Assembly (NCBI GenBank): GCA_965219455.1
Contig: OZ244744.1
Location: 1,504,001-1,568,000 of the forward strand
Source: Candidatus Latescibacterota bacterium
Lineage (GTDB): Bacteria; Latescibacterota; UBA2968; GCA-2709665
DNA length: 64,000 nucleotides
Reading direction: 5' to 3'
Part shown: one piece after another, positions 52,500 through 57,613 of the stretch
Position numbering within the stretch: position 1 is the first letter of the stretch
Layout: each line of letters opens with the position of its first letter
Position numbers and translations under genes: made by a program
Notes under the pieces: generated by a model
The model's input: only the letters and a program-made list of their open reading frames with translations
Told to the model about the DNA's origin: nothing
Databases searched by the model: none

Positions 52500-52964
52500 T
52501 TACCGAAATGCGCCTTCCGCAATATCCGATTCCCCCACAAACTGCTTGAGATGCTCTATTGCCCTTGCCAGATCGCTCCTGACCCACGGATCTCTCTCTG
52601 TCCGCATCGCCAGTTCCAGAACGGCAATAGCCTCCGGCTGTTCGATATGCATAATCGCGACCACCGCCTGCTGGCGCAATCGGCGGCTTCTGTCTGTAAG
52701 GAAATGCAACAGATCGGGCAGCGCTTCGCTGGCGCCCAGCATCCCCAGCGCCCATATCGCTTTGGCGCGCACCTCGGGTACCGTATCCCTCAGCGCCTGG
52801 CGCAAATGGGGAACCGCCCCGACCACGCGACGCGCGCCCAGATAGGCCGCGGCATCCTCGCGTTCCTGCGCCGTACCCCATCGAAGCCGTGTAAAATGAT
52901 CGCTGTCGCCGCCGCAACACGGCAACCCGATCGAAAATAGAAGAATAACACTCAGGCTGCGCAT
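52500..52964 (-). CDS. HEAT-repeat protein (possible lipoprotein)
   Basis: [23 protein letters not shown] repeats; hydrophobic N-terminus with Cys. Confidence 0.8.
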
Positions 52965-54241
52965 TCTTTCAGGGCCGTGTATTGCGCTTTAACCGTCCGG
53001 TCGATATCCGCATCGGTATGCGCCAGAGAAACAAACGTCGCTTCAAACTGGGAAGGCGCCAGATACACGCCCTGTTCCAGCATCAGCCGGAAGTAACGTG
53101 CGAAGGCATCCTGGTCGGATGCCACGGCGGCTTCGTATCGTGTAGGAGGACGATCCGTAAAAAACAGGGTCATCATGGAACCGACCCGGTTCAGGCGAAA
53201 CGGCAACCCGAGCGACTTCAGGTTCTCCCGGAAACCGGCTTCCAGCGCGGCGGCTTTGCCCTCGAGCGCCTCATACGCGCCCGGTTCCCGGAGTTGCCTG
53301 AGCGTTTCGTAACCGGCCGTCATCGCAAGGGGATTTCCGGAAAGCGTCCCGGCCTGCGACACTCCTTTTCCAAGTGGCGATATATGCGACATGATCTCCC
53401 GGCTGCCGCCGAATGCACCCACCGGCAACCCTCCGCCGATTATTTTGCCGAGCGTGGTCAGATCGGGTGTGATCCCGTAAAGCGCCTGCGCGCCGCCCGG
53501 ATGAACCCGGAATCCGGTAATTACTTCATCGAAAATCAGCACAATGCCCGACCTGGCGGTGAGTTCGCGCAACCCTTCGAGGAATCCCCCGGCCGGCGGA
53601 ATCACGCCCATATTGCCAGCCACAGGCTCCACGATGATCGCCGCGATTTCGTCCGTGTTCTCCGCTACAATTCGCTGTACCGCCTCCAGATCGTTGTAGG
53701 GCGCGGTGACGGTTCCCTCGGCCGTGCCGGCGGTCACGCCGGGGCTGCTGGGCACCCCCATGGTGAGCGCGGACGACCCCGCCCGGATCAGGAAACTGTC
53801 CGCGTGCCCGTGCCAGCACCCCTCGAACTTGATCACCTTCTCGCGGCCGGTATATCCCCTCGCCAGGCGCACGGCGGACATTGTGGCCTCCGTGCCCGAG
53901 TTCACCATCCGCACCATTTCCACACCGGGCACGAGGTCGGTGACCAGCCTGGCCATTTTGACTTCGATTTCCGTGGGCGCCCCGAAACTGGTTCCCTGCT
54001 CGCAGATCCGCTTGAGCGCCTCAACCACGCGTGGAGGCGCATGACCCAGAATCAACGGACCCCACGAGCAGACGTAGTCGATATACTCCCGTCCGTCCGC
54101 GTCGTACACCTTCGAGCCGCGTCCTCGCGTTATGAAAAGCGGCTGGCCGCCCACCGGGCCGAACGCCCGCGCCGGGCTGTTCACCCCGCCCGGAATCACC
54201 CGTTGCGCCGCTTCGAATAACTCTCCCGAACGGTTGTTCAC
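52952..54241 (-). CDS. hemL: Glutamate-1-semialdehyde 2,1-aminomutase
   Basis: [47 protein letters not shown]. Confidence 0.97.
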
Positions 54242-54302
54242 AAAACACCCCCCGATGCAACGGCCGTTGTGTGATTTAACGACAGTCGATGCCAGCCCTT
54301 AA

Positions 54303-54461
54303 CAGCCCGTTGAAACAGTCCATCCGGGCTGCGTCCGGCCCTTGTGGTCGAATTACTGCGTTGCACTCCCTCCCCGAATCTCCGATTCGACGCGGTCGCG
54401 CGCCTTGTCTTCGGCCACAATGACTCGGCCTCGCCTGCAGAGCGACTTTTTCAACGGACTG
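54303..54461. mobile_element. 159-bp MITE, family A copy 2
   Basis: TIRs CAGCCCGTTGAAACAG / CTTTTTCAACGGACTG with a perfect TTAA target duplication. Confidence 0.88.
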
Positions 54462-54508
54462 TTAATTATTGGATTTTGTCATTCATTGTCAAGTGGCGAT
54501 TATTGGGC

Positions 54509-54536
54509 TTGCAACGGCGCCGACGAAACGTATATT
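54509..54536 (+). promoter_or_regulatory. Putative promoter of the tRNA gene
   Basis: TTGCAA-16-TATATT, 14 nt before the tRNA 5' end. Confidence 0.55.
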
Positions 54537-54550
54537 TGTCCAACGCCTTC

Positions 54551-54793
54551 GCGGCAGTAGCTCAGAAGCTGTTTTAAAATTCCCGGTGAGTTCCCGAGCG
54601 CGAGCGAAAAGGTGTCGGTCAAGGCGGGCGAATTCGCCCCTATCTCAAAGATAAGGGTGGATTTGACCAACGCAGACCGAGGGGTTTGCAGCCGCGCGAA
54701 GACCGCCGGGGGTTTTAAGACAGCTTCTCAATAGGATAGAGCATCTGGCTTCGGACCAGACGATTGGGGGTTCGAGTCCTCTCTGCCGCACCA
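54551..54793 (+). tRNA. tRNA-Arg(UCG) interrupted in the D-arm by a MITE (segments 54551..54564 and 54731..54793)
   Basis: The joined segments give a 77-nt cloverleaf: acceptor GCGGCAG/CTGCCGC, D stem GCTC/GAGC, anticodon stem TCTGG/CCAGA with TCG at 54751..54753, TTCGAGT T-loop, ACCA end. Confidence 0.9.
54565..54727. mobile_element. 163-bp MITE, family B, inserted in tRNA-Arg
   Basis: TIR GAAGCTGTTTTAAAATTCCCGG / CCGGGGGTTTTAAGACAGCTTC (19/22); TCA duplicated at 54562..54564 and 54728..54730. Confidence 0.9.
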
Positions 54794-54841
54794 TCCAAAA
54801 CCCCGGTCACCTGATCGCGGTTTTGCCTCCCCGATCTTTAC

Positions 54842-57613
54842 ATGCCGCTTACCCACGACGCCATCCGAATCCGGGGCGCCCGCCAGCATAACCTGCGGAG
54901 CCTCGATCTCGACATTCCCAAAAACCGGTTTGTGGTCATCACGGGGCCATCCGGCTCCGGGAAATCCTCGCTTGCGTTCGACACCATCTACGCTGAAGGA
55001 CAGCGCAGGTACGTGGAGGCGATGTCCGCACACGCGCGCCGTTTCCTGGAGGTGATGGAGAGACCCGACGTGGACGGCATCGACGGCCTCTCTCCCGCCG
55101 TGGCGATTCAACAGCGCCGGGCCTCGGGAAATTCCAGGTCGACGGTTGGAACCCTCACGGAGATCCACGACCATCTCAGGATCCTGTTTGCCCGGGCCGG
55201 TCTGCCGCATTGCCCGGAATGCGACAAACCCATTTCGTGCCAGACCGTTGGCGAAATCGTTGACACCGTGCGCGCCCAGCCCGACGGTACGCGGCTCAGG
55301 ATCCTGGCGCCACGGGTCCGGAACCGGAAAGTTGCGTTCGACGAGGAACTGGAACGTCTGCGGCGCGACGGGTACGTGCGCGTGCGAATTGACGGGCGCG
55401 ACCGTTCGCTGGACGAAGAGATTCGCCTGGATCCCACTCTGCCGCACACCGTCGACGCCGTTGTGGACCGGCTGGTCGTCCGTCCGAAAATTGAACGCCG
55501 GCTGGCCGACTCGCTGGAAACCGCGTTAGCCCTCAGCGGCGGCGGCGTTTTTGTGGATATCCTCGAAGGACCGGAGTTGAGCTTTTCCACGCAATTCATC
55601 TGCAGAAACTGCGACGTCGGCTTTGAAGAATTGACGCCGCGTCTGTTCTCGTTCAACAGCCCGTACGGCGCCTGTCCGGCCTGTAACGGAGTGGGCGTGA
55701 GGACCGAAATCGATCCTGACCGGGTCGTTCCGGACACAAACCGATCCATTGCCGAGGGCGCGATCGCACCCTGGGGCGTCCCCAGAGGCCGTGCGGCGCT
55801 CGATCTGCTCCAGCGTCTCGCGAACCGATATCGTTTCGATCTCGCCGCACCATTCGGTTCCCTTTCACCCAGAGTGAGGGAGGCCATTCTGTGGGGCGAC
55901 AAATCCCTCCAATTCGACGGCGTGATCCCGCTCCTCAACAGGCGGGTTGCGGATACCGCGTCGGACGAAGGCGGATCCAGGCTGGACTCGTACGTCCGCA
56001 CGGTCGACTGCTCCGACTGCGCCGGCGCCAGGTTGCGAAAGGAGGCCCTGGCGGTCAGAATCGCCGGCAGGAACATCGCGCAGTTTGCTGCGATGAATAT
56101 CCACGTGGCCTGCGATTTCGTCGATAGCCTGAAGGGAAGGCTGGACCCTCCGGAGGTCGTTGCGCCGATTCTTCATGAAATACGCAACCGGCTTGCCTTC
56201 CTGAGGGACGTGGGCGTGGGGTATCTCACCCTGGAACGAAACGTGGCATCGCTCTCCGGCGGCGAGACGCAGCGTATCCGCATGGCCACGCAGATCGGCG
56301 CGCGCCTGTCGGGGGTACTCTACGTCCTGGACGAACCCAGTGTCGGTTTGCACCCCCGAGACAACCGTAAACTCATCCATACGCTTCACACGCTCCGCGA
56401 CCTTGGTAATACCGTTCTGGTCGTGGAGCATGATCGGGAAACCATGCTGGCCGCGGACCATCTGATCGACCTCGGACCGGGAGCGGGCGAGCAGGGCGGC
56501 GAACTTATGGCCCAGGGCACCGCTCAGGAAATTATCGCGGCCGGGGAAAGCCTCACGGGCGCGTACCTCTCCGGCCGGAAGACCATCCCCCCGCCTCCCG
56601 ACAGACGGCAACCCACCGGCCGAATGGTATTGAAGGGCGCGCGAGGGCACAATCTCAAGTCCATTGACGTCGCCCTCCCACTGGGCATTTTTGTCTGCGT
56701 CACCGGTGTGTCCGGATCCGGCAAGAGCACACTGATCAACCGGACACTGTATCCGGCCCTGGCGAACAGGCTGCACAACGCCACCGCCGCACCGCTTGAA
56801 CACGACGGTATCGATGGCCTGTCACAAATCGACAAAATCATTCGAATCGATCAGGCGCCGATCGGGCGGACTCCCAGATCTAACCCGGCCACATACACAG
56901 ACCTCTTTACGGATATCCGCGAACTCTACGCGCAGCTGCCCGAATCCAGGGTTCGGGGCTATACAGCCGGGCGATTCAGCTTCAACCTGAAGGGCGGGCG
57001 TTGCGAGCCCTGCCAGGGCGACGGCCTGCGTCGGATCGAAATGCACTTCCTTCCGGATGTCTACGTGACCTGCGATGCCTGCGGCGGAAGCCGGTACAAC
57101 AGGGAGACCCTGGAAATCCGTTACAAGGGCTGTTCCATCGCCGACGTCCTGAACATGACGACGGAGAGGGCGCTCACCTTCTTCAGAGATATTCCGAGCG
57201 CACAGCGTAAACTGAAAACGCTTGCGGAGGTCGGCCTGGGTTATATCCGGCTGGGCCAATCCGCAACCGTCCTCTCCGGAGGCGAAGCGCAACGCATCAA
57301 ACTGGCCTCTGAACTTTCCCGTGTGGCAACCGGAAAAACCATGTATATTCTGGACGAACCGACAACCGGGCTGCACTTCGAGGACATCCGGTCGCTCATT
57401 TCCGTTCTGGACCGGCTGGTGGATAAGGGCAACTCCGTCGTTGTGATCGAACACAACCTGGATGTGGTCAAGCGGGCGGACTGGATTGTTGATCTCGGTC
57501 CCGGCGGTGGCGATTCCGGCGGCCGGGTCGTCGCCGAGGGGCCCCCGGAACGCGTTGCCGCGGCGCCGGCTTCCCACACAGGCCGCTTTCTCAAAGAGGT
57601 GATCGCACTATGA
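54842..57613 (+). CDS. uvrA: Excinuclease ABC subunit A
   Basis: GARQHNL, TGPSGSGKSSLAFDTIYAEGQRRY, two LSGGE signatures, zinc fingers, PIGRTPRSNPATY. Confidence 0.97.
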   Translation: MPLTHDAIRIRGARQHNLRSLDLDIPKNRFVVITGPSGSGKSSLAFDTIYAEGQRRYVEAMSAHARRFLEVMERPDVDGIDGLSPAVAIQQRRASGNSRSTVGTLTEIHDHLRILFARAGLPHCPECDKPISCQTVGEIVDTVRAQPDGTRLRILAPRVRNRKVAFDEELERLRRDGYVRVRIDGRDRSLDEEIRLDPTLPHTVDAVVDRLVVRPKIERRLADSLETALALSGGGVFVDILEGPELSFSTQFICRNCDVGFEELTPRLFSFNSPYGACPACNGVGVRTEIDPDRVVPDTNRSIAEGAIAPWGVPRGRAALDLLQRLANRYRFDLAAPFGSLSPRVREAILWGDKSLQFDGVIPLLNRRVADTASDEGGSRLDSYVRTVDCSDCAGARLRKEALAVRIAGRNIAQFAAMNIHVACDFVDSLKGRLDPPEVVAPILHEIRNRLAFLRDVGVGYLTLERNVASLSGGETQRIRMATQIGARLSGVLYVLDEPSVGLHPRDNRKLIHTLHTLRDLGNTVLVVEHDRETMLAADHLIDLGPGAGEQGGELMAQGTAQEIIAAGESLTGAYLSGRKTIPPPPDRRQPTGRMVLKGARGHNLKSIDVALPLGIFVCVTGVSGSGKSTLINRTLYPALANRLHNATAAPLEHDGIDGLSQIDKIIRIDQAPIGRTPRSNPATYTDLFTDIRELYAQLPESRVRGYTAGRFSFNLKGGRCEPCQGDGLRRIEMHFLPDVYVTCDACGGSRYNRETLEIRYKGCSIADVLNMTTERALTFFRDIPSAQRKLKTLAEVGLGYIRLGQSATVLSGGEAQRIKLASELSRVATGKTMYILDEPTTGLHFEDIRSLISVLDRLVDKGNSVVVIEHNLDVVKRADWIVDLGPGGGDSGGRVVAEGPPERVAAAPASHTGRFLKEVIAL

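Follow-up and report, generated by a model that had tools for sequence, protein, structure and literature searches.

A MITE splits the tRNA-Arg(UCG) gene upstream of uvrA in a Candidatus Latescibacterota bacterium and probably knocks it out

The genome under study (G000), from an uncultured sponge-associated bacterium, is a single contig of 5.84 Mb, and the window analyzed here is a stretch of 64,000 nucleotides corresponding to its positions 1504001 to 1568000; coordinates below count from the first letter of that window. Between hemL and uvrA lies a tRNA-Arg(UCG) gene that is parted by a 163-bp element into a 5′ fragment of 14 nt and a 3′ fragment of 63 nt (Table 1). The element has inverted ends and is bordered by a duplicated TCA, and the split layout that a sequence-only reading had described for this locus was recovered in full. 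Upstream of the tRNA, one of three promoter-like sites found by scan (versus a mean of 0.4 in shuffled sequences) matches the promoter-like sequence reported in that same reading, with a 16-nt gap between the hexamers TTGCAA and TATATT. Both hexamers are conserved in 12/12 aligned sequences of the genus and also in the 12 aligned species that, as described below, carry a deletion in the tRNA.

Table 1. Features of the hemL-uvrA region, in window coordinates
Feature	Position	Strand	Details
hemL	52952..54241	-	TIGR00713, 613.2 bits, cut-off 527.3
Second, unrelated MITE (family A)	about 54297..54465		Between hemL and tRNA promoter
Promoter-like TTGCAA-16 nt-TATATT	54509..54536	+	5′ of tRNA; 9/12 consensus matches
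5′ tRNA-Arg(UCG) fragment	54551..54564	+	Acceptor 5′ strand, nt 8-9, D-stem 5′ strand, A14
TCA target-site duplication, left copy	54562..54564		Single TCA at empty sites L032, L033
Family B MITE	54565..54727		163 bp, almost wholly self-complementary
Left terminal inverted repeat	54565..54586
Right terminal inverted repeat	54706..54727
Chimeric ARAGORN tRNA call (artefact)	54717..54793	+	5′ end taken from MITE
TCA target-site duplication, right copy	54728..54730
3′ tRNA-Arg(UCG) fragment	54731..54793	+	D-loop remainder, D-stem 3′ strand, anticodon arm (TCG), variable loop, T-arm, acceptor 3′ strand, ACCA
Conserved hairpin between tRNA and uvrA	54796..54825	+	Inverted repeat; not called terminator by scan
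uvrA	54842..57613	+	NF001503, 1357.2 bits, cut-off 1147

When the element and one TCA were removed in silico, ARAGORN drew a 77-nt cloverleaf for tRNA-Arg(tcg) with an encoded CCA, in agreement with the full pairing earlier noted for the two halves. All stems of the rejoined tRNA were complete, with 7/7 pairs in the acceptor, 4/4 in the D stem, 5/5 in the anticodon stem, and 5/5 in the T-stem, two of which are G-U. The 5′ 14 nt are the same as in the intact orthologues of two relatives, G013 and G011, and the 3′ fragment carries two lineage-specific substitutions relative to G013. A second MITE, of the unrelated family A, lies on the hemL side of the tRNA promoter. Family A gave 89 HSPs in the genome, its best copies are 95 to 97% identical and fold as a hairpin, and the copy at this locus was unaligned at the corresponding site in G013 and G011.

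The split gene is read by tRNA finders in two different ways. The Rfam tRNA model gave a local match from 54726 to 54782 (model positions 10 to 63) at 29.1 bits (gathering score, 29), compared with 68.1 bits for the intact orthologues of G013 and G011, and no contiguous cloverleaf scoring like those orthologues was obtained from the split gene. ARAGORN called a tRNA in which the first 11 nt are the right end of the element, the acceptor pairs at 4/7 positions, and the D stem has 3 bp. Standard finders had been expected to miss or truncate the gene; truncation was borne out by the Rfam match, whereas a simple miss was not, as ARAGORN calls the chimera. Because the 5′ end of that call is derived from a transposon, automated tRNA inventories of this genome would overstate its decoding set. 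The locus is thus an annotation trap, in which a reported tRNA-Arg(TCG) has borrowed a transposon 5′ end.

The junctions were examined in four sequencing runs, for all of which contigs were used: X9, an RNA library from a sponge metagenome, and X1, X2, and X4, for which the library type is not on record. The right junction was crossed by contigs from three studies, at 54647 to 54950 in X1 (0 differences), 54698 to 54950 in X4 (0 differences), and 54698 to 54795 in X2 (1 difference). X9 contributed a 265-nt contig over 54570 to 54833 that has 1 difference and is unspliced. The left junction was covered at low depth and in X2 only, and searches of metagenome contigs for the exact left- and right-junction patterns returned 0 stretches each. 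A misassembly had been named as one outcome that would undo the locus; the contigs of X1, X2, X4, and X9 show that misassembly does not account for the right junction.

The element belongs to a family of dispersed, noncoding repeats. BLAST of the 163-bp query against the genome gave 43 matches, 17 of them full length, and the same terminal ends were present on 17/17 full-length copies. Nine of these are about 162 bp long (88 to 100% identity), seven form a subfamily of 185 to 190 bp (73 to 76%), and one is 130 bp. The inverted arms of the copy under study, 54564 to 54586 and 54706 to 54728, are 23 nt long and 87% complementary, and its interior holds zero open reading frames of at least 60 aa, as the listed frames merely cross its edges. 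Family B was found in 12/12 congeners searched, with 138 to 169 first-look candidates in six of them, and gave weak matches only in 4/8 genomes of the neighboring family. A scan of genome contigs for the exact end pattern returned 81 stretches, nearly all in metagenome-assembled genomes labeled Candidatus Latescibacterota or Gemmatimonadota and one in a genome labeled "uncultured bacterium."

To define the target site, flanks were compared for 58 full-length copies with enough flanking sequence, drawn from the genome under study and from 80 end-pattern loci. Perfect TNA/TNA flanks were found at 42/58 copies, comprising TAA at 19, TTA at 12, TCA at 9, and TGA at 2. Since 9 of the 42 perfectly flanked copies have TCA duplications, TCA is a normal target of family B. 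In silico excision yielded a tRNA at 1/58 copies, solely the copy under study, and a suggested preference of the family for tRNA GCTCA motifs was not upheld. Several family B copies sit 85 to 300 bp from tRNA genes, a raw figure that is uncontrolled for intergenic space.

No autonomous parent insertion sequence, in the form of an end pair enclosing a transposase, was found in the genome under study or the 80 loci of relatives. The scan covered spacings of 400 to 4000 bp and returned 15 pairs, of which the two shortest above 1 kb were inspected; neither is an insertion sequence, as each consists of two distinct MITEs with an ordinary gene between them, for DUF5069 in one pair and for SRP54 (ffh-type) in the other. 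The Pfam domains PF13586 and PF13340, which we take to mark the IS1031/IS427 subgroup of IS5, had 0 matches in the genome. PF01609 had 39 matches, in open frames of 245 to 543 aa, none adjoining family B ends. The parent may lie elsewhere or may have been lost. Family B shares its TNA target with IS1031/IS427-type elements of the IS5 family, which make a 3-bp TNA duplication, but neither the two domains nor the ends of an insertion sequence of that type were matched. The earlier proposal of an IS5/IS1031-type element therefore held for the TNA target and was not confirmed for parentage, and the TNA duplication is the one feature by which the element could be assigned to that type. Four of five MITE hallmarks are present, namely a short noncoding body, terminal inverted repeats, a target duplication, and dispersed copies; the fifth, an autonomous insertion sequence, was not found. 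We class the element as a MITE and its family as genus-wide.

To place the insertion in time, the hemL-uvrA interval was compared across the other species of the genus, 14 in total. In the two closest ones, G013 (flank identity, 96.6 to 97.1%) and G011 (89 to 93%), the flanks abut with a 4-nt overlap, a single TCA stands where the split gene has two, and the tRNA is intact (loci L032 and L033, respectively). Moreover, an intact tRNA-Arg(tcg) lies just 5′ of uvrA in 15/15 scanned loci from other genera and the neighboring family. The comparison of empty and filled sites that had been proposed as a check thus placed the insertion in the lineage of the genome under study, after its split from G013, as both near relatives have empty sites. 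At uvrA, 68/321 four-fold sites (0.212) differ between the genome under study and G013. The membership of the element in a multicopy family and the empty orthologous site with one TCA in both near relatives together indicate that the split layout is more than a chance arrangement.

The tRNA itself differs from that of G013 at two positions, a D-loop site that we count as position 17 and a G-to-A change at position 46, both of which are placed on the branch of the genome under study because outgroups agree with G013. The position 17 site also varies elsewhere. At position 46, A is present in the split copy alone and G in 29 others (17 intact and 12 deleted), read by eye. By our own arithmetic, two substitutions since the split from G013 compare with about eight expected if all 77 nt were neutral. 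This shortfall would fit either an insertion that is recent within the branch or some constraint on the region.

In the remaining 12/14 congeners, the same tRNA gene has lost its D-loop and D-stem 3′ strand through a deletion of 9 to 11 nt. The acceptor, anticodon, and T arms survive in all 12 of these alleles, together with a connector of 8 to 10 nt, and additional mutations affect the anticodon (G009 and G008), the T-loop (G004 and G005), and the acceptor stem (G004, G010, and G014). BLAST with the 3′ part of the tRNA did not find a second tRNA-Arg(UCG) copy in these species. The Rfam tRNA model scored 7/12 remnants at 24.7 to 47.3 bits and left 5/12 undetected at an E value of ≤1, and ARAGORN called one deleted allele (L035) a 68-nt tRNA. 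Five of the 12 lie over the Rfam gathering threshold, and so similar caution applies to their annotation. Mitochondrial tRNAs lacking the D-arm exist, and the deleted alleles keep the same arms as they do, but the anticodon, T-loop, and acceptor mutations in several species point to decay rather than to working D-armless tRNAs. We note that the left edge of the deletion in the 12 species coincides with the TCA that the MITE used as a target. Further, the 11 to 12 nt after GCTCA in G007 and G009 match the MITE end at 10/12 positions, compared with 7 to 8/12 for the remnants of their kin, by our own count. One deleted allele is in G003, which groups with G011 in the uvrA tree and looks mosaic.

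Decoding of CGN codons was assessed from the tRNA and enzyme complement of the genome. ARAGORN found arginine tRNAs with the anticodons acg, ccg, and cct and two with tct. TadA was present at 160.9 bits against an NCBIfam equivalog cut-off of 150, and was over the cut-off in 15/15 genomes of the genus. In most bacteria, two tRNAs suffice for the four CGN codons, one with ICG for CGU, CGC, and CGA and one with CCG for CGG (PMC3711424). CGA is not a rare codon in the genome under study, at 9.4 per 1000 codons and 11.6% of arginine codons in 2408 crude long open reading frames. In the uvrA fragment it accounts for 7 to 10 of 67 to 69 arginine codons in G000, G013, and G011 and for 4 to 9 of 66 to 76 in the 12 deleted-type species, both of which are small numbers. 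The sequence-only reading had called tRNA-Arg(UCG) often dispensable and had asked for another CGA decoder and for tadA. tRNA-Arg(ACG), tRNA-Arg(CCG), and TadA are all encoded, and the same gene is degraded in 12/14 congeners. We conclude that the genus evidently lives without tRNA-Arg(UCG).

The explanation that we favor, with a probability of roughly 0.85, is an ordinary, lineage-specific MITE insertion that knocked out a redundant tRNA-Arg(UCG). After the lineage split from its nearest sequenced relative, a nonautonomous member of the genus-wide family inserted in the D-loop of the only tRNA-Arg(UCG) gene, the one in the hemL-uvrA interval, at a TCA that was thereby duplicated. CGU, CGC, and CGA would then be read by tRNA-Arg(ACG) once TadA has made inosine-34, and CGG by tRNA-Arg(CCG). 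With nt 14 and nt 15 held 166 nt apart, a normal tRNA should no longer be made, and we infer that the split gene gives no working tRNA. A MITE knock-out was one of two readings originally offered, and it agrees with the empty sites, a mobile TNA-duplicating family, the substitute decoders, and the decay in most congeners. Within one genus, then, one redundant tRNA gene has had three fates, being intact, MITE-split, or D-arm-deleted, and these illustrate the loss of UCG-type arginine tRNAs once ICG decoding suffices.

Some observations run against a knock-out. The halves still pair perfectly and have accumulated only two substitutions, the promoter is intact, and CGA is in common use. Moreover, the predicted fold of the locus keeps the acceptor and D stems and sets the MITE apart as a clean D-loop hairpin.

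One alternative, which we think unlikely and which is compatible with a knock-out, is that what selection keeps is a transcribed uvrA leader, made up of the promoter together with the tRNA-like 3′ portion and the hairpin, for example as a processing module for RNase P or RNase Z, and that the MITE is tolerated within it. The interval between the tRNA and uvrA contains no promoter-like site, and the scan found 0 terminator-like sites after the tRNA. When the 12 deleted-type species are compared in pairs, the tRNA remnant differs on average by 0.177 and the leader from the hairpin to the ATG by 0.140, compared with 0.417 for the 16-nt spacer that separates the −10 hexamer from the start of the tRNA and 0.321 for uvrA four-fold sites (11 species, with G007 omitted for poor alignment). 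On these grounds the promoter, remnant, and hairpin may be kept as a uvrA leader. Consistent with such a role, the hairpin shows covariation between AAAG/CTTT and AAAA/TTTT, and the tRNA model still scores the majority of remnants noted above. Retention as a leader may also explain the clean-looking halves of the split gene. The promoter scan, however, goes by consensus matching only, and the X9 RNA contig ends at 54833, short of the uvrA start. The conservation could also arise if recombination had spread the deleted allele at a late stage (G003 looks mosaic), and the five remnants that the tRNA model fails to detect also speak against a selected tRNA-like structure.

A second alternative, which we hold to be very unlikely, is that the split gene still yields a working tRNA, either because the tRNA accommodates the hairpin as a very large extension of the D-loop or because the hairpin is cut out or nicked and the acceptor and D stems keep the halves together, whether or not these are religated. 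In one version, a shade more doubtful still, a double-strand RNase would trim the D-loop hairpin, and the acceptor, D, and residual hairpin stems would hold together a nicked or extended tRNA-Arg(UCG). The predicted fold of 54551 to 54793 retains the acceptor and D stems and forms the element into one long hairpin, with a minimum free energy of −120.3 kcal/mol and a z score of −6.97. Genes for RNase III (122.9 bits) and RtcB (564.4 bits) are encoded, and the proposed RNase III target is a stem of about 29 bp. Perfect pairing of the excised halves, a conserved promoter, the low number of substitutions in the halves, and the use of CGA would likewise be expected of a functional gene. The insertion, however, separates A14 from A15 within the tertiary core of the tRNA, next to A20 of the D-loop, which is presumably an identity element for ArgRS, and the otherwise invariant G46 is lost in the split copy. 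RNase III leaves 5′-phosphate and 3′-OH ends, and RtcB does not join such ends.

Evidence for processing of the split transcript was likewise lacking where it was sought. A joint of 54564 to 54731, which would give the GCTCA-ATAGG junction proposed as a diagnostic, was absent from the contigs of X1, X2, X4, and X9, in which rare forms can be missed. The X9 contig, the sole one from an RNA library to cross the junction, has the unspliced form; because contigs cannot show rare processed forms, it counts as weak evidence. With an empty site in the nearest relatives and a single tRNA among the 58 copies, the arrangement does not recur in a way that would point to selection for it, and most of the genus does without this tRNA. 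The second reading originally offered, a new type of bacterial tRNA intervening sequence, is left with predicted hairpin geometry as the sole point in its favor. If it were true, the locus would hold the first transposon-derived intervening sequence of a bacterial tRNA outside the anticodon loop.

The element also differs from the known classes of tRNA intervening sequence. Group I introns likewise interrupt bacterial tRNA genes, but these are self-splicing ribozymes located in the anticodon loop, whereas the element lies in the D-loop between nt 14 and 15 and is a palindromic repeat with a target duplication. A search of 54300 to 55000 with Rfam at an E value of ≤10 returned no group I intron or other intron family, and nothing beyond the tRNA match and a 14.5-bit snoRNA match. 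Noncanonical introns and split tRNAs of archaea are processed by the tRNA splicing endonuclease at a bulge-helix-bulge. Like the locus described here, they combine an interruption outside the anticodon with a helix that joins the halves, but the present organism is a bacterium, and the endonuclease domain PF01974 had 0 matches in its genome while four archaeal controls were positive. Moreover, in the predicted fold the D stem continues into the element as one uninterrupted stem, and symmetric 3-nt bulges are not seen. We conclude that the element is neither a group I intron nor an archaeal-type intron.

A third alternative, which we judge highly improbable, is that the insertion is ancestral to the genus and was followed by precise excision in G013 and G011 and by imprecise excision with loss of the D-loop in the other 12 species. 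The 12-species deletion does share its left-edge TCA with the MITE target, and the bases after GCTCA in G007 and G009 do resemble the MITE end. The MITE end and the 5′ strand of the tRNA anticodon stem are inherently alike (7/11), however, so that this apparent footprint is inflated. Two precise excisions would be needed, each restoring a tRNA that matches the outgroup sequence exactly or almost so, and the intact genes, at 68.1 bits, bear no trace of a former pseudogene state. One insertion and one independent deletion are more parsimonious, and the uvrA tree suggests that the insertion is nested among clean empty sites.

The least credible alternative, that the junctions are an artefact of assembling a repeat-rich metagenome-assembled genome, draws on the repetitive nature of the element, a quality figure of 8.49% contamination, a sampled-word content of ≤0.70 in every run, and the lack of depth in X1 and X4 over bins 54476 to 54559, but it is contradicted by contigs with 0 to 1 differences across the right junction in all four runs, by X2 depth spanning the left flank, and by a perfect TCA duplication with exactly complementary tRNA halves, which is the expected product of real transposition.

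The locus can finally be set beside other bacterial MITEs. Elements such as Correia/NEMIS of Neisseria are about 100 to 200 bp long and noncoding, with inverted ends, a short target duplication, and many copies; they form a long RNA hairpin when cotranscribed and can interrupt genes. Family B has the same build but differs in having a 3-bp TNA target rather than TA and in having no matching parent insertion sequence among the sequences searched; the present copy differs further in its uncultured, Latescibacterota-type host and in its tRNA D-loop target. Our literature search found no described case of a bacterial MITE within a tRNA D-loop in the papers that it reached, although such cases may exist. 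A MITE interrupts hupL in Thiomargarita (PMC4853749). The closest analogues of the split gene are hairpin-forming MITEs of the Correia type and MITE-interrupted genes such as Thiomargarita hupL. With this locus, a previously undescribed MITE family of sponge- and coral-associated Latescibacterota-like genomes gains a dated insertion, with an empty site in relatives and a defined TNA target.

The orthologous tRNA-Arg(UCG) upstream of uvrA has lost its D-loop and the 3′ side of its D-stem in 12 species of the genus (loci L034 to L045). In each case, the deletion removes 9 to 11 nt and starts at the same TCA that is the target of the MITE in the split tRNA. Among these 12 congeners, the remnant, its promoter, and the downstream hairpin changed at about half the synonymous rate (0.14 to 0.18 versus 0.32), and 5 of the 12 remnants still pass the Rfam gathering score for tRNA. 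Together, the remnant, promoter, and hairpin may form a uvrA leader that resembles a tRNA.

The uvrA tree placed one carrier of the deletion, G003 (L034), as sister to G011, a carrier of the intact tRNA, with a support of 1.0. G003 nonetheless has the deleted allele, which has a T8C change in common with those of the congeners G005 and G002 and flanks that resemble those of G013, a near relative of the split-tRNA genome. The deleted allele in G003 is probably a short recombination patch. In two further deleted loci, L044 (G007) and L036 (G009), the 11 to 12 nt directly 3′ of the remnant's GCTCA match the MITE terminus at 10 of 12 positions, as counted by eye, but match the tRNA sequence of their kin at only 7 to 8 of 12. 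A previous insertion into this site could have left these MITE-like bases as its footprint. Alternatively, the resemblance could be due to chance, as the MITE terminus and the tRNA sequence are inherently alike.

Features near the split tRNA and elsewhere in the genome
Feature	Position	Strand	Description
Family-A MITE	window 54297-54465		~168 bp; folds as a hairpin; flanked by TTA/TAA; located in the interval from hemL to the tRNA promoter
Strong promoter-like site	window 54465-54492	minus	TTGACA-16-AATAAT, 11/12; directed toward hemL
Two tmRNA calls	G000:C1:2870202-2872757 (outside window)		2.2 kb apart, identical tag
Two tRNA-Ser(cga) genes	G000:C1:5011376-5011967 and 5024157-5024487 (outside window)		12.5 kb apart

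Upstream of the split tRNA lies a second MITE, family A, which is unrelated to the family-B MITE in the tRNA. BLAST returned 89 HSPs for family A in the genome, the top copies being 95 to 97% identical, and thus family A looks both younger and more abundant than family B. Contig depth over the family-A MITE was very high in sequencing runs X1, X2, and X4, and no alignment to it was found at the orthologous site in G013 or G011. The −10 hexamer of the hemL-facing promoter-like site adjoins this MITE, and its −35 hexamer is a conserved TGTCAA block present in all alignments of the genus.

Elsewhere in the genome, tmRNA and tRNA-Ser(cga) are each doubled, and a TadA fragment precedes the second tRNA-Ser(cga) gene. 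The doubled genes are local duplications or assembly redundancy, the assembly being flagged with 8.49% contamination. DDE_Tnp_1 (PF01609) had 39 matches genome-wide, which fall into several sets of nearly equal score and length. These matches and the presence of two or more MITE families point to a very transposon-rich genome in this sponge-associated lineage.
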